NCBI GenBank assembly: GCA_934168005.1
Contig: CAKPMN010000001.1
Span: 2,597-66,596 of the forward strand
Reading direction: 5' to 3'
Source: an uncultured Bacilli bacterium
Lineage (GTDB): Bacteria > Bacillota_I > Bacilli_A > RF39 > UBA660
Length of the DNA: 64,000 bases
Shown: positions 1 to 40,373 of the stretch, piece by piece
Numbering within the stretch: the stretch's first letter is position 1
How the letters are laid out: every line of letters begins with the position of its first letter
Program-made: the position numbers and the translations under genes
Notes under the pieces: model-generated
Database searches by the model: none
Seen by the model: only the letters and a program-made list of their open reading frames with translations
Told to the model about the DNA's origin: nothing

Positions 1-1108
1 TAATATGAGTGATAGTGATGTAGAAATTCAATTAGATAAATTAGATTTTCCATATACTTTAACTGATGGAGTATTTGATATTACTATACCAAGACGTAGA
101 CTTGATGTAGAGGCTAATAAGGCTGATTTAGCTGAAGAAATTGGTAGACTTTATGGATATAACAATCTAGATGATACACTTCCTGTAGTTCCAACTAAAA
201 GAGGTGTTTATGTAGGGGATGTTTTGATTAGAAAACAAACTTCAAGAAGACTTAGAACTTTAGGTTTAAATGAAGTTAGAACTTATACTTTAGTTGATAG
301 TAAACATGCTTCTATGTTTAATTATGATAATAAAGAGATATTGAATTTACCTAATCCTTTAAGCTCTGATAAAGCTTATGTTAGATGTTCTTTAATTGAG
401 TCTTTAATTAGAACTTATGAGTATAATAAAGCTAGAAAAATAAATAATATAAGACTTTATGAAATAGCTAAAACATATGATGCATCATTTGTTGAAGATC
501 AAAAAGTAGCTATGTTAATAGAAGGCAATTATATTGAAAGCAATTGGAATAATGTAATTGTAAAATCTGATTTTTATGTATTAAAAGGAATTGTTTATAA
601 TTTACTTGAATATTTAGGATTTAAAAATAGAATTAGTTTAGAAGTTGAAAGTTTACCATTAATTCATCCTGGTATAAGTGCTAGAATATTAATTGATAGA
701 AAACCTGTTGGTATTATTGGTAAGGTTCATCCTTCAAGAACAAAATCTGATTTATTTGTTTGTGAGATTTCTTTAACTGAACTTTATAATAAAAGTATTA
801 AGCCTATCAAATTTAAGGAAGCTAATCGTTATCCTGTCATTGTAAAGGATGCTGCTTGGATAGTTGATAATAGTGTTACTAATAGTGAGATAGAATCTGT
901 TATTAAACAAGCAGGTGGAAGACTTTTAGATAGTGCTTATATTTTTGATATTTATAGAGATATTCTTGATGGTAAGAAATCTATGGCTTATAAAATGGTT
1001 TTTAAAGATGAAAATAGAACTTTAAGTGATGAAGAAGTAACTGAAGTATTTAAAAAGATAATTGATAGTGTTATTAATAAATGTAATGCTACTTTAAGAG
1101 ATAAATAA
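1..1108 (+). CDS. pheT: Phenylalanine--tRNA ligase beta subunit, C-terminal portion; the 5' end lies outside the window
   Basis: The ORF runs open from the window edge to a stop at 1108. The sequence looks like the B5 and C-terminal FDX-ACB region of PheT (for example AYKMVFKDENRTLSDEEV). Confidence 0.75.
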   Translation, partial: NMSDSDVEIQLDKLDFPYTLTDGVFDITIPRRRLDVEANKADLAEEIGRLYGYNNLDDTLPVVPTKRGVYVGDVLIRKQTSRRLRTLGLNEVRTYTLVDSKHASMFNYDNKEILNLPNPLSSDKAYVRCSLIESLIRTYEYNKARKINNIRLYEIAKTYDASFVEDQKVAMLIEGNYIESNWNNVIVKSDFYVLKGIVYNLLEYLGFKNRISLEVESLPLIHPGISARILIDRKPVGIIGKVHPSRTKSDLFVCEISLTELYNKSIKPIKFKEANRYPVIVKDAAWIVDNSVTNSEIESVIKQAGGRLLDSAYIFDIYRDILDGKKSMAYKMVFKDENRTLSDEEVTEVFKKIIDSVINKCNATLRDK

Positions 1109-1184
1109 AAATAGTTTTAAAAAAACTATTTTTTTTGACATAAATTTTTCATATTATTTATTATACTTTAATAGGTGATGAATT

Positions 1185-2162
1185 ATGAAAAAATTTAAGA
1201 GACGAAAGAATTATTTTAAATATGTTGTTTTAATTTTTATTATCGTTATACTTTATTTTATAATTTCTACATTTGTATTAAAAATTAAATTAACTTCTTC
1301 TAATGAAGAATTTTTACGTGAACTTTTAAAAGATTCTAATCATCATTTAGCTTATGAAAATAATAATAGTTTATCTTCTTACTTTTTAAAATTAATATCT
1401 AGAATTGATATAGAAAATCCAATTAGTATTTTGAATAGTTTTTTTGGGTATGATGATGTTAGTAATTTTACAGTTGTTTCTGCTGATAGTAATGTTGAGC
1501 CAGCTTTTTCAGATTATGTACTTGATCCTACTTCAAAAAAAATAGAAAATCCTATTGTTTATATTTATAATACTCATCAAACTGAAAATTACTCTTATAA
1601 GGCTTATGAAGATTATAATATAACTCCAAATGTTATGATGGCATCATATATATTACGTGAAAGACTAGATGATAAAAATATTGAAGCTATTGTTGAAGAC
1701 GCTAATATAAAAGAAATACTAAATAGTAACTCATGGAGTTATTCATCTAGTTATAAGGCGTCTAGATTTTTAATTAAAGATACTATAAAAAAGTATCCAA
1801 ATATAAAGCTTTTTATTGATCTACATCGTGATTCTGTTTCTCATAAAGTTTCAACAACTAGCTCAAACGGTAAAAAATACGCAAAAGTAATGTTTGTTAT
1901 AGGAAAAGAATATGATAGTTATAAAAAGAATTTAGAAGTCGCAAATAAACTAAATAATATTATTAAAAATAAGGCTTCTATTTCAAGAGGGGTATTACTA
2001 AAAGAGGGAAAAAATGTTAATGGAGTTTATAATCAAGATATAAATCCAAATATTATATTAATAGAATGTGGAGGTAATGAGAATAGCTTAGAAGAGGTAA
2101 TAAATACAATAAATCTTTTAGCTGAAGCTATTTCTATTTATTTAGGTGATAGTAATGGATAA
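1185..2162 (+). CDS. spoIIP: Stage II sporulation protein P (SpoIIP)-like
   Basis: A 325-aa protein with an N-terminal TM anchor and the motifs IVYIYNTHQTENYSY, IDLHRDS and ILIECGGNENSLEEV. An RBS AGGTGATG lies 5 nt upstream of the ATG. The position before yqxA-lepA-hemW matches Bacillus subtilis. Confidence 0.6.
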   Translation: MKKFKRRKNYFKYVVLIFIIVILYFIISTFVLKIKLTSSNEEFLRELLKDSNHHLAYENNNSLSSYFLKLISRIDIENPISILNSFFGYDDVSNFTVVSADSNVEPAFSDYVLDPTSKKIENPIVYIYNTHQTENYSYKAYEDYNITPNVMMASYILRERLDDKNIEAIVEDANIKEILNSNSWSYSSSYKASRFLIKDTIKKYPNIKLFIDLHRDSVSHKVSTTSSNGKKYAKVMFVIGKEYDSYKKNLEVANKLNNIIKNKASISRGVLLKEGKNVNGVYNQDINPNIILIECGGNENSLEEVINTINLLAEAISIYLGDSNG

Positions 2163-11615: not shown

Positions 11616-12889
11616 TATGCTGCTTCTTTAACTTCTATATCTTCATATTCTTGAACTACTTTTTTATATGTTTCATAAACTTGTTTATAGTTTTTTAAAT
11701 ATTTGCTTATATCTGGATTTGAAAATGGGATTACTTTAAAACCTCTCCATGAAGATTGATTATAATAATTATATAAAAGTTCTGCTTTAACGTTATCAAT
11801 TTTAATTTCTTTATTATTTCCTTTTGTTGTTTTTGTGATATTTAGACTTGCCATTAATTCAACTGTTTTATTATAATTTTGATCTTGCATTTGAGCTGAA
11901 ATAAAGTTTCCAAGTGAATAGAAAACAACTGTGTTTCCTATATGTTCTATTGGTTGAATGACATGTGGGTGAGTACCTATTACTATATCAACATTTTGTT
12001 CTGCTAAAAAATTTGCCATATCTTTTTCATATGCTGTTGGGGTATGTGTATATTCAACTCCCCAGTGCATAGCTACTATTAATACATCAACTTTGTCTCT
12101 AACTCTTGCAATATCTTCTTTTACTGTTTCTTTATATTTTTGATATTCTGTATCACGTGATGGATCATTTATAACAAGATCGGTAGGCCAAACATTTACT
12201 AGATATTCTTTTCCAGAAGGAACACTTATTCCATTTGTACCATATGTATAATTTAGCATAGTATATGATATATCATTCTTTGTTTTGATTATTACTTCGT
12301 TTCTTTCTTCAGTAGATGAGTAACTTCCAACTGCTAAAACATCTTTAGTATTCCAATATTCTCTTGAACTTAGTATGGCTTTTTCGCCTCTATCCATAGT
12401 ATGATTTGTTGCTAGGCTTACTAGATTAAATCCAGCATCAATCATTGCGTCTCCAGCTTCTTGTGGTGAGTTAAAAGTAGGGTAATCTGATAATCCTAAC
12501 TTTGTTCCACCTAGGACTGTTTCTTGATTATAATAGGCTAAGTCATAATCTTTTACAATATCTTTGACGTATGATATTAATGGTTTAAAATCATATCCTG
12601 TTCCATTTGCTTGACGGGCTGCTTCTTTGTAAACACTACTATGTATTAGATTATCACCAACCATAACCATTGAAAGAGAAGTTACTTTTTCTTGTTCTTC
12701 TTGTTTTACTTCTTCTTTTCTAGGTTCAGGTTTTCTTAGTAATTCTGGTATTAGAATCACTGCTAATACTACTATTAAAATTAATGGTATTAATAAAAAT
12801 AATTTATTAAATTTCTTACTTTTTTGTTTTTTTAATTCTTTTATTTTTCTTCTTGCTTCTTTTTTTATTTCTTTTTTTCTTATATCCAT
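11615..12889 (-). CDS. CapA/PgsA-family metallophosphatase-like protein (poly-gamma-glutamate synthesis protein family)
   Basis: An N-terminal TM anchor, then MVMVGDNLIHSS, ATNHTMDRG, VAMHWGVEY and GTHPHVIQP, which is the characteristic CapA-family motif series. Confidence 0.8.
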   Translation of the reverse strand: MDIRKKEIKKEARRKIKELKKQKSKKFNKLFLLIPLILIVVLAVILIPELLRKPEPRKEEVKQEEQEKVTSLSMVMVGDNLIHSSVYKEAARQANGTGYDFKPLISYVKDIVKDYDLAYYNQETVLGGTKLGLSDYPTFNSPQEAGDAMIDAGFNLVSLATNHTMDRGEKAILSSREYWNTKDVLAVGSYSSTEERNEVIIKTKNDISYTMLNYTYGTNGISVPSGKEYLVNVWPTDLVINDPSRDTEYQKYKETVKEDIARVRDKVDVLIVAMHWGVEYTHTPTAYEKDMANFLAEQNVDIVIGTHPHVIQPIEHIGNTVVFYSLGNFISAQMQDQNYNKTVELMASLNITKTTKGNNKEIKIDNVKAELLYNYYNQSSWRGFKVIPFSNPDISKYLKNYKQVYETYKKVVQEYEDIEVKEAA

Positions 12890-13015
12890 AAATACCTCTT
12901 ACTTTCTGTTTTTAGTATAACATGTTTATGTGTCAATGTAAATTTAGAAAGTAAGTTTGTCTTGAATATAGGTTTATAAAATGTTATGATGTTAATGAAT
13001 TAAGGTGGTTGATTT

Positions 13016-19279: not shown

Positions 19280-19576
19280 ATGGAAGAAAAAATGACATTT
19301 AAAGTATTTGATGAGAATGGAAAAGAAATAGAATGCGAAGTTTTATTTACTTTTGAGTCAGATGAGACTCATAAAAATTATATTGTTTATACAGACAATA
19401 CAACAGATGAAGATGGTAATACAAAAGTATATGCTTCAATTTATACACCTGATGTAGAAGAAACTAAACTAGAAGCTATTACAACAGATCATGAATGGGC
19501 AATTATTGAAAAAATATTAGGAGAACTTCAAGAAGAGGCAAGAAAGGCAGTAGAAGAAGAACAAGCAGAATCATAA
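19280..19576 (+). CDS. DUF1292-family small acidic protein (YrzB-like)
   Basis: A 98-aa acidic protein positioned between ruvX and mltG, as yrzB is in Bacillus. Confidence 0.55.
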   Translation: MEEKMTFKVFDENGKEIECEVLFTFESDETHKNYIVYTDNTTDEDGNTKVYASIYTPDVEETKLEAITTDHEWAIIEKILGELQEEARKAVEEEQAES

Positions 19577-20694
19577 TGCAGAAGAGAAGAAAGCTTAGTA
19601 TAAAAAAGATTTCTATTGCTTTTGTTATTTTTGTGGTTCTTGTAATTTTGGGGAGTTTTTTAACATATAAATTGAATTTAAGAAGTGTAAGTAGCAAATC
19701 AAATGAAATTAGCTTTGTAGTTTCAAATGGCTCTACTTATCAATCTATAGCTTCTTCTTTAAAGAAGAATAAATTAATTCGTTCAGAATTATTCTATAAA
19801 ATATATATAAAATTAAATTCTCCATCTAATTTACAAGTAGGAGAGTATAAGTTAAATCAAAATATGTCTGTTAGTCAAATAATAGATGTTTTAGAAAGTG
19901 GCTCTAATTATAATCCTGATACGGTTAAAATAACTTTTAAAGAGGGGATAACATTTAGAGATGTAGCTAAATTAATTAGTTCATCATTTAATATATCTGA
20001 AGGTGATATTTATAATAAGATAAAAGATGAAACTTATTTAAATTCATTGATAAAAAATTATTGGTTTTTAACTGATTCTATAAAAAACAAAAAAATATAT
20101 TATTCTTTGGAAGGCTATTTATTTCCAGACACATATGAATTTAATTCTAAAGATAGTTTAGAATCTATTTTTAAGAAAATGTTAGATAATACTAATACAA
20201 AATTAGCTAATTATAAGTCAGCTATTGAAAGTAGTAAATATAATGTTCATGAGATTATTACTATGGCTTCTATTATTGAAAAAGAATCTAGTGGTTCTAC
20301 ATCTGACATATTAGATAATACTAATTACAATGTTTATCAAGCAGTATCTGGAGTTTTTTATAATCGTTTAAATTCTGGATGGAGTTTAGGTAGTGATGTT
20401 ACTACATATTATGGGTTAAAACTTGATTTACATGAGCGTGATTTAACTAGTAATGAGTTAGCTCAAGTAAATGCATATAATACACGTTCATCTTCAATGG
20501 CTGGGAAACTTCCTGTTGGACCTATTTGTATGCCATCAATAGAAGCAATCAATGCCTCTATTAATCCAATGAAACATAAATATTATTATTTTGTTGCGGA
20601 TAAGAATGGTAAAACTTATTTTAATCAAAATGCGACTGGACATTCTAATACAATAAGCAAATTAAAGCGTGAGGGAAAATGGTACGAATATTAG
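19576..20694 (+). CDS. mltG: Endolytic murein transglycosylase MltG (YceG family)
   Basis: An N-terminal TM anchor followed by a YceG-like domain (YYSLEGYLFPDTYEF). It has the conserved Bacillus yrrL position. Confidence 0.85.
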   Translation: MQKRRKLSIKKISIAFVIFVVLVILGSFLTYKLNLRSVSSKSNEISFVVSNGSTYQSIASSLKKNKLIRSELFYKIYIKLNSPSNLQVGEYKLNQNMSVSQIIDVLESGSNYNPDTVKITFKEGITFRDVAKLISSSFNISEGDIYNKIKDETYLNSLIKNYWFLTDSIKNKKIYYSLEGYLFPDTYEFNSKDSLESIFKKMLDNTNTKLANYKSAIESSKYNVHEIITMASIIEKESSGSTSDILDNTNYNVYQAVSGVFYNRLNSGWSLGSDVTTYYGLKLDLHERDLTSNELAQVNAYNTRSSSMAGKLPVGPICMPSIEAINASINPMKHKYYYFVADKNGKTYFNQNATGHSNTISKLKREGKWYEY

Positions 20695-21260
20695 ATGAAA
20701 TAAAAGATTATGCTCATAAAAATAATGTTCCAATTATGTTAGATGATGGAATAGAATTTTTAACTAATTATATAAGAGAGAATAATATAAAAAACATTTT
20801 AGAAATAGGAAGTGCGATAGGTTATTCTGCTATTTCAATGGCTCTTGTTAGTGATGATGTTCATGTTACTACAATTGAAAGAGATGTTAATCGTTATAAC
20901 GAGGCAATAAAAAATATTTCTAAAATGCATCTTGAAGATAGAATTAATGTTATATTATCTGATGCTTTTGATGTAGAACTTAATGATTGTTTTGATTTAA
21001 TATTTATTGATGCTGCTAAAGCTCAATATATTAAATTTTTTAATAAGTTTGATTCTAATCTTAAATCAGGTGGTGTTGTATTTTCTGATAATTTAAATTT
21101 TCATGGACTTACACATACAAATGAATATATCGAAAGCAGAAATGTTAGAGGTTTAGTTAGAAAGCTTAATCAATATATAGATTTTTTAAATGAAAATAAA
21201 GATTATAATACATCATTTTATGATATTGGTGATGGAATTAGCGTAAGTATAAAAAAATAG
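20679..21260 (+). CDS. SAM-dependent O-methyltransferase (YrrM-like)
   Basis: ILEIGSAIGYSAISMA is methyltransferase motif I, followed by DLIFIDAAK. It follows mltG as yrrM does in Bacillus. Confidence 0.75.
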   Translation: MVRILDEIKDYAHKNNVPIMLDDGIEFLTNYIRENNIKNILEIGSAIGYSAISMALVSDDVHVTTIERDVNRYNEAIKNISKMHLEDRINVILSDAFDVELNDCFDLIFIDAAKAQYIKFFNKFDSNLKSGGVVFSDNLNFHGLTHTNEYIESRNVRGLVRKLNQYIDFLNENKDYNTSFYDIGDGISVSIKK

Positions 21261-21261
21261 A

Positions 21262-21292
21262 GAAGACAAATAATTAAATTTGTCTTTTTAAT
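21262..21292 (+). terminator. Rho-independent terminator after the yrrM-like gene
   Basis: AGACAAAT-aatta-ATTTGTCT followed by a T-run. Confidence 0.6.
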
Positions 21293-21559
21293 TACAAAAA
21301 ATTAAGTTTAAGATAATAAGTATAGTAATTAATGAAACATATTATGTTGAGTCATGGTTAAAAAATTATGATTATAAGAAACTAAATAATGTATTTAAAA
21401 ATGAAGAGTTTAACATCTTTATTTTTTTATTGAATGCGCTTACATTTTTAAAACATAATGTTTTAAAATTATATATCTATTTTTTAAAATTATTATAATT
21501 AATTCATACTATAATAACAGGACAATTAATATAGTACGTTTAAGAGAGAAGGATATGAT

Positions 21560-21648
21560 ATGAGAGGTATTAATAGTAACTCTAATTTTTATCGTGTTAA
21601 CAGTACAAATATCAGTACTGGTTTTTATGTTTCCTTCTTTTCTAATTA
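21560..21648 (+). CDS. Candidate 29-codon leader ORF (MRGINSNSNFYRVNSTNISTGFYVSFFSN)
   Basis: ATG 21560 lies 7 nt after the RBS-like GAGAGAAGGA. The TAA stop at 21646-21648 falls in the loop of the hairpin that sequesters the RBS of the downstream giant gene. Confidence 0.25.
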
Positions 21649-21660
21649 AAAAGAAGGAGG
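21630..21660 (+). promoter_or_regulatory. RBS-sequestering hairpin upstream of the glycine-rich giant gene
   Basis: CCTTCTTTT (21633-21641) pairs with AAAAGAAGG (21649-21657) across a 7-nt loop, and flanking T:A and U:G pairs can extend the stem. The 3' arm contains the Shine-Dalgarno AAGGAGG (21654-21660) for ATG 21667. Confidence 0.45.
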
Positions 21661-21666
21661 ATATAA

Positions 21667-24600
21667 ATGAAAAAGGGTAAAAAAGGATTTGTAGTAAGTG
21701 CGGTATTGTACCCACTACTAGTATTATTTCTAGCAATAATCATGGGACTTTTATCAATGACAGATACAAGAAAAAGAATATTAGATAAAATGAAACTAGA
21801 AATAACAGATAATATATTTGATGATGCAGCATGCTCTTGCGATACAATATTAGCAAAACTAAACTACATTATCGCAAATGGAACAGGAGGCAGTGGCGGA
21901 GATACTGGATCATATGCATATAACAAATTAACACTAAATGTAAAAACATATGAAGCATATAGTGACTTTCCAGTGGTAGGAAACATAATAGGAGATATCG
22001 CAGTATTATCAGATACACCAATAAAAAACTATTATGTATCAACAAGTGTACCAAAAAGTCCACAAGAAGGAACAGTATGGATAGTACAAGATAATACAAG
22101 TAATTATTATGTAACAAGTGACTGGAATAGAATCGGTATAAGTTATGTAATGCAATATGAAAATAGTAAATGGGTATTAAAGAAATCATATGTATACAAT
22201 GGTGAGTCTTGGACAATGCTTTATTATGTAAAACTTAGTAATAGTTATGTAGATTTAACTGCAACAGATATAAATGCAGATATCGAGACAAACTTTGATT
22301 ATACTGGAGAATTTCAAATGTATACTGCAAGGTTTTCTGGATACTATAAGATAGAATTATGGGGAGCTCAGGGCGGAGTTATCTGGAGCGGAGGTAAAGG
22401 AGCATATACATCAGGAGAGATATATTTAGATGCAGGACAAGTCCTTTATATATATGTAGGCGGAAAAGGTTCTGGACAAACAGGGGGCTGGAACGGAGGC
22501 GGAAATGGTGGTACTAATAGTGGTGATGATCGAAGATATGGTCGTGGAGGCGGTGGAGCTACTGATGTTAGACTAGTGTCTACTAGTGACAAAGCCCTTT
22601 GGAATGAAACTTCTTCCTTACTTAGTAGAATTATGGTCGCAGCTGGAGGTGGAGGCGATGCTCACAGATACTATACCCCAGATAGTGGTAACTATTATTC
22701 TAATGGTTATGGCGGAGCCGGAGGGGGACTTAAAGGTTATGATGGTTCTGTAGCTGCTTCTAAAAATTGGGGAACTAGTGGACAACAAGGAATGGGTGCT
22801 AACCAAGCAACACCAGGTTATACTTTGAGTTTATTATCTTCTACTGGTGATTTTGGCTATGGAGGAACAACTCCTGAAACTGGAGCCGGTGGAGGCGGCG
22901 GTTGGTATGGAGGCGGTGCTTCTAATATAGGTGGAGTTGGAGCTGCTGGTGGATCTAGCTATATATCAGGTCATGCAGGATCAGATTCAGTTTCTATAGC
23001 TGAAACAAATAAACAAAATGGAAATATAGTTCATAGAGGTAGTAGTCATTATGATGAAAATTACTGGTTTAGAAACACTGATATGATAGATGGTAATGGA
23101 TATAGGTGGGGAGAAGAAAGATATTCTTCAGTAGTAGGTATGCCTACAATTGATGGAAGTACAACTATGACAGGAAATACTGGTAATGGGCATGCCAAAA
23201 TAACATTAATGACAGTACAAGTAATCGAGGAAAATGAATTAAATAAATTAAGACAAGATAGTGAAAAAGTTTGGAGTTATTCATATTCCGGTAATAGTCA
23301 GACCTTAGGAAAGTATCAATTGTTTGAAGCACCAGTATCTGGAACTTATTCTATAGAAGCATGGGGAGCTCAAGGTGGAGTTATTTGGAACGGTGGAAAA
23401 GGAGCATATACTTATGGCGACATAGACCTAAAGAAAGGTGAAAAACTATATGTATATGTTGGCGGAACAGGAAATGGCTCAATTGGCGGTTGGAACGGCG
23501 GTGGCAGTAACACTAATTCTGCAACAGCTGATGATCGAAGATATGGTCGAGGCGGAGGTGGAGCTACTGATATTAGATATCAATCAACATCCAGCATAGA
23601 TAGCTGGTATGGAATAGATTCAATTAAATCACGAATCATGGTTGCGGCAGGAGGCGGTGGAGATGCCCAAAGATATTATAATCCAGATAGCGGCAACTAT
23701 TATTCTAACGGCTATGGCGGAGCAGGAGGCGGAATTACCGGATACGATGGTTCTGTAGCTGCTTCTAAGAATGGTTGGAGTACTTATGATAATAGAGGTA
23801 CAGGTGCTGGGCAAGGAATTGCTGGATATATATATAATAATATTAAAAATACAGGAGCTTTTGCTCAAGGAGCAACTTCTCCCGACACAGGTGCTGGAGG
23901 CGGCGGAGGCTGGTATGGCGGTGGTGCATCACAAATAGGTGGTGTAGGAGCAGGAGGTGGCTCTTCATATATAAGTGGTCATAATGGCTCAAATTCAATA
24001 TCTGAGGAATCAACAACTGCAGATATTTTACATACTGGAAGTAGATATCATTATAGTAATTTTTATTTTAGTAATACAAAAATGATAGATGGGAACGGTT
24101 ATGAATGGTCTACTGTTAGAGGTGCTTTAGTTAGTATGCCAACAAAAGGAAAGACTAGTACTATGACTGGAAATACAGGAAATGGTTATGCGAGAATAGC
24201 CTTAAAAGAAATTAATGAAACTTCAAGAGATAAACAAGAAGAAAGCGAATGGCATTATGAATACGCTGGTAAAACAGCTAATACAGGATCTTATCAAGAA
24301 TTTACAGCTTCTGTATCAGGTGTTTATAGATTTGAACTATGGGGAGCTCAAGGTGGAGTTATCTGGAGTGGTGGAAAAGGATCATATACATCTGGTGAAA
24401 TGTATATGAATGCTGGAGAAAAACTTTACATATATGTAGGCTCTAAAGGAATTAATACATATGGTGGCTGGAATGGCGGAGGTGATGGTGCTATTTCAAC
24501 TGGAGATGATAGAAGGAATGGTCGAGGTGGCGGAGGAGCAACTGATATAAGAATATCAAAAACTTCAAATCTAAGTATAACGAATGAATATGATAGTTTA

Positions 24601-33970: not shown

Positions 33971-34020
33971 TTAAAGGAGTGTACTATGTCTTTTTTTAGT
34001 ATAATACACTCCCTTTAAGG
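33971..34020 (+). promoter_or_regulatory. Long imperfect hairpin upstream of the 34091 gene
   Basis: TTAAAGGAGTGTA (33971-33983) pairs with TACACTCCCTTTAA (34005-34018) with a 1-nt bulge and a 21-nt loop. Confidence 0.35.
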
Positions 34021-34090
34021 AAGTGAGGTGTTTTTTGTAAATTAATAAATATTTTATAAGATACTTTATTTTTAGTAGGGAGGAATAGTT

Positions 34091-34507
34091 ATGAAAAAAA
34101 GTAAAAAGTATTTAAAAATAAGTTTTTTAGCATTTTGTTTTTCGTTAGTTAGTTTAGTAAGTGTTTCAGCAGCCGGATATAATTTTAATAATTTTACAAT
34201 CCCTAAGTATCAAAATTGGGGTGTGTTGGGCTTATTTAAAACGAGTTCTACTACAGACTATGGCACAGTTAGATTATCAAATATGAATCTAGAAGCTGTG
34301 ACATTTAGAGCTCGTTCAATGGATACAAATCAAAACTATGGTCCATTTGGTTCATCAAAAGTTGTTGATCAAGTTGGTGAAACTGTAAAAGTAAAATATA
34401 ATCAAACTTATACTGCAAGAACTTATATACAATTGCAGGCAAGAAACCATAATTGGAATTCAGCAACAAGGTCTATTTCAGGGGTATTTTACGTAGATGG
34501 AAAATAA
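34091..34507 (+). CDS. Small secreted protein (Sec signal peptide)
   Basis: The RBS GGGAGGAA and the signal peptide MKKSKKYLKISFLAFCFSLVSLVSVSAAG, with a mature part of about 110 aa that contains no Cys. Confidence 0.5.
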   Translation: MKKSKKYLKISFLAFCFSLVSLVSVSAAGYNFNNFTIPKYQNWGVLGLFKTSSTTDYGTVRLSNMNLEAVTFRARSMDTNQNYGPFGSSKVVDQVGETVKVKYNQTYTARTYIQLQARNHNWNSATRSISGVFYVDGK

Positions 34508-40207: not shown

Positions 40208-40373
40208 TAAAAAATGTGATACAATTAATTTGTTTCAAGAAAAATTTGATATTTTACCGTAGACAGTAGGGGAGAAATCTTAATTATCCTACCGAGGACT
40301 TTTTAATAAAAGACTTTGGCCTTACTGTTTTAGTAAGGCTTTTATTTTACGGTTATGGTTCGGAGGTGAAATT
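40208..40373 (+). ncRNA. Probable L10(L12) ribosomal-protein leader (autoregulatory 5' UTR of rplJ-rplL)
   Basis: A 166-nt structured spacer between rplA and rplJ that includes the stem-loop CCTTACTGTTTTAGTAAGG followed by a U-run. Firmicutes carry the L10 leader at this position. Confidence 0.45.

Follow-up and report, generated by a model that had tools for sequence, protein, structure and literature searches.

Leader-peptide coupling is documented for the plasmid systems Tap-RepA (R1), RepR-RepA (IncI2), and RepY-RepZ (IncI1/IncB) (PMC8053102, refs 41, 49-51). In these systems, translation of the main gene depends on translation of the leader, the peptide itself is functionless, and regulation is exerted by antisense RNA, with an additional pseudoknot in IncI1/IncB (PMC8053102). 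The same coupling logic was shown experimentally for mgtQ-mgtB of Salmonella, in which mgtQ comprises 8 codons, lies between the genes of an operon, and needs ribosome-destabilizing Asp/Glu codons (PMC8092293). The present analysis concerns a 64,000-nucleotide (nt) stretch from an uncultured Bacilli bacterium (contig CAKPMN010000001.1 of assembly GCA_934168005.1), referred to here as the window, and within it the leader of a giant gene encoding 1497 amino acids (aa). This leader contains a short open reading frame (ORF) with its own Shine-Dalgarno sequence (SD1), a terminator-like hairpin (H2) inside that ORF, and a second hairpin (H3), in which a complementary sequence (anti-SD) pairs with the Shine-Dalgarno sequence (SD) of the giant gene (SD2). 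A preliminary description of the locus had proposed either translational coupling or attenuation.

The leader resembles Tap-RepA, RepR-RepA, and RepY-RepZ in having a short leader ORF, provided with an SD of its own, that ends beside or over the main start. Three sequence features typical of the coupling class are found here: an upstream ORF with its own SD (GAAGGA, followed after 6-9 nt by ATG) is present at all loci compared except L009, in which SD1 is weakened, while the downstream SD lies in a stable, covarying structure, one arm of which is crossed by the leader ORF before it stops near the main start. Unlike the plasmid systems, no pseudoknot and no antisense promoter are evident here, the latter not having been specifically searched for. 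Moreover, there is no sequence homology, and the leader is chromosomal, precedes a surface-protein gene, and comes from the gene's own 5' end. The difference from mgtQ is that the ORF here has 27-29 codons, contains no conserved codon, and is located in the 5' leader.

Other classes of leader are similar in only some of their parts. In arrest leaders (ermC, cat, cmlA, SecM-SecA, MifM-YidC2), a leader ORF is placed before an SD-sequestering hairpin, and a ribosome exposes the downstream SD; such leaders rely on an alternative pairing and on either an arrest peptide that is conserved or a stall that depends on a drug. The locus shares the order of leader ORF and SD-sequestering hairpin, but its peptide differs completely between groups of related loci, and the ORF reads through the anti-SD itself. 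No conserved arrest peptide or stalling motif was found among the leader peptides compared. Attenuators of the pyrBI, trp/his, and bmrB-bmrCD type carry a terminator-like hairpin and a U-run in or just after the leader ORF, so that termination could be decided by where the ribosome stands. A hairpin of predicted terminator grade with a U-run is also present in the leader ORF here; however, runs of regulatory codons and an identified antiterminator are missing, and the hairpin is inherited from coding sequence. No shared codon bias was seen among the leader ORFs. The STAB-SD of cry3A, which acts via 30S binding, lies near the 5' end of the major transcript, whose start is 129 base pairs (bp) upstream of the start codon (PMC4113751). 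Like it, SD1 is a conserved SD-like sequence far 5' of the real start in a genome of low-GC Gram-positive type; unlike it, SD1 is followed by a start codon and an open frame. In fourU and ROSE thermometers, the SD pairs with a U-rich stretch of a marginally stable hairpin, which melts across the physiological range; the anti-SD here is U-rich, with predicted hairpin stabilities of -14.2 kcal/mol in the window and -8.5 to -10 kcal/mol in its relatives.

A permissive Rfam scan of 20500-22500 (Rfam 15) gave no family for the leader. The wcaG RNA motif at 21592-21672 (+) was judged a chance match, scoring 21.5 bits against a gathering score of 42, with an E-value of 0.36. The leader is an undescribed one, with a probable control of a known type.

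The hairpin over SD2 and the leader ORF

A pyrimidine anti-SD is located at 21632-21641 of the window. The preliminary description had drawn the SD-sequestering hairpin from the arms CCTTCTTTT (21633-21641) and AAAAGAAGG (21649-21657), which are exact complements; in the RNAfold structure, the helix extends to 17 bp with one bulge, and SD2 together with the spacer is paired up to the base preceding the AUG (coordinates of all features are collected in Table 1). The hairpin also stands against shuffled controls: the free energy of H3 (-14.2 kcal/mol) compares with -6.5 +/- 2.1 kcal/mol for dinucleotide shuffles (z of -3.7), with 1 of 200 shuffles being as good, and the fold of the whole 141-nt leader has a z of -3.66. 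Occlusion of SDs was ranked by the energy required to force the SD open after local folding of positions -100 to +18 of each gene start. Among 40 gene starts in the window, the giant gene ranks first, with 13.7 kcal/mol as against a median of 4.4 kcal/mol. In the full-length leader fold, SD2 of the window stays closed, and 8.1 kcal/mol is needed to open it.

The leader ORF, whose product is MRGINSNSNFYRVNSTNISTGFYVSFFSN, was read directly in the sequence with the start, the length of 29 codons, and the SD-like element that had been assigned to it. Neither strand of the 409-nt intergenic region holds another ATG-initiated ORF of 15 or more codons. Its stop codon had been placed in the loop of the hairpin at 21646-21648; the placement in the loop stands, whereas the position is to be corrected to 21647-21649, so that TAA closes the loop on its 3' side and extends one base into the 3' arm, 17 nt before ATG 21667. 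Opening of SD1 costs 2.8 kcal/mol in the window and from 1.2 to 4.7 kcal/mol over the leaders compared. The motif AGGACAAT forms the 5' end of the stretch that is homologous to the 5' untranslated region (UTR) of related genes. Since the UTR homology begins there, transcription probably starts just upstream of 21519.

The leader is 45% T, and stop codons are sparse in every frame; by dinucleotide shuffling, the chance absence of an in-frame stop has P = 0.09 for the window leader. Little weight can be put on the open frame by itself, since in sequence this rich in T stops are infrequent whichever frame is read. No Pfam match, arrest motif, or run of regulatory codons was found in the leader peptide. 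A functional small peptide or type I toxin was ruled out on account of the unconserved peptide, the frame shifts between groups, and the missing Pfam match. Fusion of the leader and main ORFs by frameshift or read-through was rejected as well because the ATG-to-ATG distance is 107, 102, 101, 99, or 98 nt, and this variation changes the relative frame. A 3-codon mini-ORF (ATG ATA TGA, 21555-21563, +) overlaps the start of the leader ORF; it is probably incidental, since L002, L003, and the L006 group lack it.

Two further strongly occluded SDs were noted in the window. The second one, at 33990-34100 (+), lies 5' of ORF 34091-34507 (138 aa, no Pfam match) and requires 12.8 kcal/mol to open; CUCCCU near a TATAAT-like box pairs with AGGGAGG, and the leader has a z of -3.66. 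The third one, at 12880-12990 (-), requires 13.6 kcal/mol (z of -4.62) and lies 5' of the ORF starting at 12889 (-), a PGA_cap (CapA-like) gene whose SD is covered by the 10-bp stem ACUUACUUUCU/AGAAAGUAAG. A promoter-like TTGACA is situated inside the latter hairpin, so its 5' arm may not be transcribed. Neither gene has an obvious leader ORF.

Related loci, covariation, and origin of the leader

This is a rare gene family, and protein searches together with one metagenome scan yielded a handful of short metagenomic contigs. Two scans of a genome collection (with the N-terminal protein and then with its alignment) matched nothing, and a protein-alignment scan of viral contigs was without match. 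There were 36 viral-contig matches to a 17-mer of H2; these were judged chance, none having the leader context or the N-terminal module. A homologous leader is present in six related loci (L002, L003, L006, L009, L010, and L024), while in three others (L004, L008, and L023) the gene has a short plain 5' UTR and no leader. The comparison therefore covers seven leaders, that of the window and the six, which form three or four divergent groups, several of the contigs being short.

All seven leaders follow a common plan: AGGACAAT, SD1, ATG, an ORF of 27-29 codons, H2, anti-SD, stop, and SD2. The SD1 core GAAGGATAT is identical in six of the seven, with ATG 6-9 nt downstream, and SD1 plus ATG constitute the best-conserved block; the interior of the leader ORF is 43-53% identical between groups. 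At all seven loci, the leader stop lies within the loop or directly next to SD2, and 9-17 nt separate it from the main ATG. The SD-sequestering hairpin is clear in five of the six related leader loci and partly eroded in the frameshifted L010. In local folds, opening of SD2 costs 6.6-11.9 kcal/mol in the leader-bearing loci as against 1.8-2.4 kcal/mol in the leaderless L004, L008, and L023, which have neither an anti-SD nor an occluded SD.

The peptides, in turn, are unrelated between groups (MRGINSNSNFYRV..., MTRVYGYFIFCYV..., MEVISNNICFLML...), and the register of the leader frame against the conserved RNA elements varies from group to group. Indels of 1 nt (L002/L003) and 2 nt (L024) and the loss of 3 nt in frame (L010) have left the frame open; the probability of an open frame per locus, as estimated from shuffles, is 0.04-0.11. 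Judging from these sequences, the selected feature is not the peptide.

Base pairing was assessed by counting pairs on the seven-leader alignment, with 500 shuffles and with the partner slid by 1-3 columns as controls. In the anti-SD:SD2 helix, 90.7% of the cells are paired (46-59% in the slid controls), and three of eight pairs changed on both sides, that is, in a compensatory manner. For the anti-SD:SD2 helix and H2 jointly, 90.3% of the cells are paired; no shuffle out of 500 reaches this fraction, and one reaches the covariation score. The L006 group has UCCCUUUU in place of UCCUUCUU as anti-SD and, matching it, AAAGGUGA or AAGGGAGA in place of AAGGAGGA as SD2, whereas SD1 remained unchanged despite the altered anti-SD. 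The SD1:anti-SD helix contains no double changes, and 165 of the 500 shuffles are as good. The constancy of SD1 when the anti-SD changes, together with a pairing not above shuffles, favors SD1 having been kept as a ribosome site and not as a pairing partner. The role of an anti-anti-SD was rejected for SD1, there being no covariation support for it.

The origin of the leader can be read from the leaderless locus L023, which has AGGACAAT, 12 nt, GGAGGATATGAAATG, and then the gene start MKGVRNNNGFVVSAVLYPLLVLF. Window positions 21519 to about 21630 are colinear with this 5' end (local score 59-69 as against a shuffle mean of 20; z of 10.8), and the other leaders match it with z of 3-5. The first ten leader codons are still in the ancestral frame (MRGINSNSNF compared with MKGVRN-NNGF), and the frame is shifted thereafter. 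Based on the colinear match of UTR motif, SD, ATG, and about 24 codons with L023, the leader is a remnant of the gene's own 5' end and not purpose-built. The last 50 nt of the leader (anti-SD, loop, and SD2) have no significant similarity to the downstream coding sequence, and a larger tandem duplication, with the 3' 50 nt of the leader derived from codons 21-41, was ruled out (all z < 2).

The first approximately 72 residues of the protein (window 21667-21885; L001-L010, L023, and L024) are nearly invariant, with the pattern KGFVVSAVLYPLLVLFLA.IMGLL.MTDTRKRILDKMKLEI...CSCDTIL, and the C-termini differ. In L009, a coding sequence close to that of the window (91% nucleotide identity) is joined to a leader of L006 type (52%), and the leader of L024 is a hybrid. 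An invariant N-terminus with different C-termini and these two mosaics make the family look recombination-prone and suggest cassette-type recombination at its 5' end.

Hairpin H2 was the sole terminator-like site flagged in a scan of 21100-21800 (21601-21620 followed by GTTTTT). Its free energy in L002, L006, and L024 is -6.2, -4.6, and -3.5 kcal/mol, respectively. As a benchmark, the best hairpins before T-runs just past ORF ends in the window have -6.3 to -4.0 kcal/mol, while the median for 632 other T-runs is 0. By these predicted energies, H2 is terminator-grade for this genome in the window and in L002, and weaker in L006 and L024. The hairpin with U5-7 is kept in seven of seven leaders, its loop is shorter than in the ancestral coding sequence, and one G-C/A-U double change occurs among the seven. 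It is inherited from codons for AVLYPLLVLF, which in L023 form CAGTACTA...TAGTACTG followed by TTTTT (-10 kcal/mol). Due to this inheritance, H2 could be a passenger. In the coding sequences of L023 (~645-680), L008 (~1470-1505), L002, L005, and L006, the AVLYPLLVLF codons give rise to an inverted repeat of 7-8 bp with TTTTT behind it, which amounts to a cryptic terminator-like element within the gene that translation would mask.

Proposed constitutive translational coupling and competing explanations

The anatomy of the leader, its fold statistics, conservation, covariation, and fossil origin are shown by the sequences; translation of the leader ORF, a limit set by the hairpin on initiation in the cell, and coupling of the giant gene to the leader are inferences from them. 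The proposal preferred here, although confidence in it is evenly divided, is constitutive translational coupling via the leader ORF. A complete copy of the gene, with about 40 nt of its own upstream sequence, would have come to lie behind an old 5' end either by a partial duplication or by recombination of the cassette type. The old initiation site (SD1 and ATG 21560), still intact, would most likely still load ribosomes; the conservation of SD1 and ATG amid saturated sequence, the descent from a real initiation site, and its accessibility suggest that ribosomes start at 21560. They would read a 29-codon frame without conserved meaning, through the anti-SD, to TAA 21647-21649. When no ribosome is on the leader, the anti-SD would pair with SD2 and the spacer, and direct initiation at ATG 21667 would be blocked. 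Given a stop 9-17 nt before the main ATG, a ribosome terminating on the leader would necessarily have melted H3, sit over SD2, and reach almost to ATG 21667. This would be followed either by re-initiation by the same ribosome or by binding of a fresh 30S subunit before H3 refolds. Translation of the giant protein would in this way be slaved to the upstream initiation site, with no sensing of ligands or amino acids. Indeed, no arrest motif, regulatory codons, or Rfam riboswitch match was found in the leader; an antisense promoter was not specifically searched for. Of the two possibilities named in the preliminary description, coupling is consequently plausible and has comparative backing, whereas attenuation of the sensing type is unsupported, the peptide being unconserved and free of arrest motifs and regulatory codons.

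Several observations weigh against this proposal. All leaders stem from one event, so their shared features are not independent observations. SD1 is weakened in L009 (GGAAGAA), and the anti-SD is eroded in L010. The conservation of the leader (0.51-0.63) is below that of the third codon positions of the gene (0.65-0.82). The loop contains TAA in two of three frames and stops are sparse, which makes an open frame ending there only weakly improbable. In L002/L003, the minimum-energy fold of the full-length leader pairs the anti-SD with SD1 and leaves SD2 nearly free (0.5-0.7 kcal/mol to open), so the dependence on leader translation may not be absolute. Finally, the presence of SD1 on the mRNA is assumed.

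The simplest competing explanation is that the leader is an inert recombination scar, translated or not, in which the hairpin throttles synthesis of a costly giant protein and SD2 initiates by breathing or ribosome standby. The clear fossil origin, the unconserved peptide, the evolution of the leader at the silent-site rate, the only weakly improbable open frame, and the two other window genes that have SD-sequestering hairpins with no obvious leader ORF all agree with a scar. It is nevertheless considered unlikely: SD1 and ATG are strictly conserved while their surroundings are saturated, the stop stays 9-17 nt before the main ATG despite frame-changing indels, and a hairpin of -14 kcal/mol with no mechanism to unfold it would be expected to nearly silence the gene. 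Ribosome-dependent attenuation, in which H2 and its U-run would terminate transcription at ~21626 unless a ribosome is close behind RNA polymerase, would require close coupling of transcription and translation in the organism. No conserved antiterminator was found in the seven-leader alignment fold, and H2 is perhaps a passenger, since a stronger hairpin (-10 kcal/mol) with a T-run sits inside functional genes. For these reasons, attenuation is decidedly improbable, even though H2 is the only site of its kind in 21100-21800, equals or approaches in free energy the best genuine post-ORF terminators of the window, and shows a kept U-run, a shortened loop, and one double change. Such termination may also join the SD2 hairpin as a double lock.

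A slight chance is given to a 5' stabilizer, that is, an SD1-held ribosome shielding, with or without translation of the leader ORF, an mRNA of more than 4.5 kb from 5'-to-3' exonuclease in the manner of the cry3A STAB-SD, with the hairpin as a separate matter. SD1 is strongly conserved, is separated by ~25-40 nt from the likely 5' end and by ~120 nt from the main start downstream, and does not covary with the anti-SD; these features fit this function. However, a STAB-SD needs no start codon, yet a properly spaced ATG and an open frame up to SD2 were kept; the covarying anti-SD is left unexplained; and a suitable 5' end and RNase J would be needed in the organism. The chance is slimmer still for an RNA switch that dispenses with leader translation, in which the anti-SD would toggle between SD1 (on) and SD2 (off), with temperature, a protein, or a small RNA as the trigger. 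Only one of the two pairings can form at a time, L002/L003 folding as SD1:anti-SD and the window as anti-SD:SD2, and U-rich anti-SDs like the one here are typical of RNA thermometers. Opposed to this are the SD1:anti-SD pairing itself, which has no double changes and does not exceed shuffles, the weakness of the alternative pairing in the L006 group, the lack of an Rfam family match, and the window hairpin, which is very stable for a thermometer.

If constitutive translational coupling is true, the expression of a 1497-residue glycine-rich surface protein of an uncultured low-GC bacterium would depend wholly on a relic initiation site. This would then be a clear natural case of a regulatory leader ORF that arose from partial gene duplication or cassette exchange and did not evolve from scratch. 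The mechanism is a textbook one and adds no new concept, so that the locus is of value as an example; it also supplies a small conserved leader undescribed in databases (SD1, leader ORF, terminator-like hairpin, and anti-SD:SD2 hairpin). A more elaborate version, regarded as quite unlikely, is that the fossil 5' end was exapted as a two-tier ribosome-dependent gate consisting of the H2 terminator and the SD2-masking H3, in which both read-through and initiation of the giant gene would need ribosomes loaded at the ancestral start. In that case, the scar would be a universal adapter for new C-terminal cassettes behind the conserved N-terminal module, and the resident promoter, operator, and initiation site would serve the expression of recombined cassettes.

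Genomic context and the gene family

Table 1. Features of the giant-gene locus in the window, followed by the divergent genes of the related loci (coordinates of the respective contigs).
Feature	Coordinates	Strand	Remarks
5'-UTR motif AGGACAAT	21519-21526	+	also in L002, L003, L006, L009, L010, L024, and leaderless L023
Fossil copy of family 5' UTR, start region, and ~24 initial codons, with frameshift	21519-21630	+	alignment with L023
SD1, GAGAGAAGGA	21544-21553	+	ribosome-binding site of the leader ORF, core GAAGGATAT
Leader ORF	21560-21649	+	ATG 21560, 29 codons and TAA 21647-21649
H2	21601-21626	+	hairpin CAGTAC/GTACTG 21601-21620 and U-run 21622-21626; -5.9 kcal/mol
H3	21625-21666	+	5' arm with anti-SD 21625-21641, loop 21642-21648, 3' arm 21649-21666
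SD2, AAGGAGG, of giant gene	21654-21660	+	
Giant gene, 1497 aa	21667-26160	+	Pfam PF12810, E 1.7e-155, four stretches
mltG/YceG-like gene	19576-20694		
yrrM-like O-methyltransferase ORF	20679-21260		Pfam Methyltransf_3
Intrinsic terminator of yrrM-like gene	21265-21289	+	hairpin 21265-21284 and T-run 21285-21289; -4.7 kcal/mol
Xre-type helix-turn-helix (HTH) gene, L003	2-211	-	
Xre-type HTH gene, L004	5708-5920	-	
Xre-type HTH gene, L006	~500-660	-	
Xre-type HTH gene, L008	~1080-1320	-	
Xre-type HTH gene, L009	115-348	-	
Xre-type HTH gene, L010	1723-1947	-	
Xre-type HTH gene, L023	238-480	-	
Xre-type HTH gene, L024	2-157	-	

The G+C content of the window is 27.4%. Upstream of the leader, the terminator described earlier for the yrrM-like gene was found, and it is among the stronger post-ORF terminator hairpins of the window; from it to the leader ATG there are ~270 nt, as had been stated. 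On the 3' side, the giant gene is followed by a 197-aa gene and then by obg and truB-like genes. The giant protein consists of a hydrophobic pilin-like N-terminal module, which is kept in homologs, and four ALK/LTK-type glycine-rich domains (PF12810). A database look-up returned no record of the exact protein, and the window yielded neither another copy of the leader, nor a paralog of the N-terminal module, nor a homolog of the Xre regulator. A minus-strand ORF at 21509-21736 was judged spurious, being of low complexity and without a Pfam match.

At most related loci, a divergent Xre-type HTH gene of 70-80 aa is present on the minus strand (Table 1). In L002, L003, L004, L006, and L023, a pair of palindromes surrounds or follows the promoter, such as ATCACAAnTTGTGAT in L002/L003. 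The giant gene in the window has no adjoining divergent Xre-type gene, and the clear operator palindromes found at most related loci are missing there, the only palindrome being AAAACATAATGTTTT at 21449-21463.

The L009 gene is truncated. Two other family members look frameshifted, namely L023 at ~612-731 (13 nt missing ahead of the ILDKM codons) and L010 at 2113-2200 (a deletion in the codons of the transmembrane segment); L010 and L023 may be either pseudogenes or assembly errors. Distant homologs of the N-terminal module occur in L011-L022 as proteins of 79-96 aa with a coiled-coil tail and no leader, encoded inside conserved four-gene operons (~636, 96, 115, and ~800 aa). They were set aside as uninformative on the leader question, since they lie inside operons without a leader. 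Elsewhere in the window, the ribosomal protein L10 leader (RF00557, 80 bits) is located at 40239-40354 (+), and it was the only element above the gathering threshold in an Rfam scan of the whole 64 kb.

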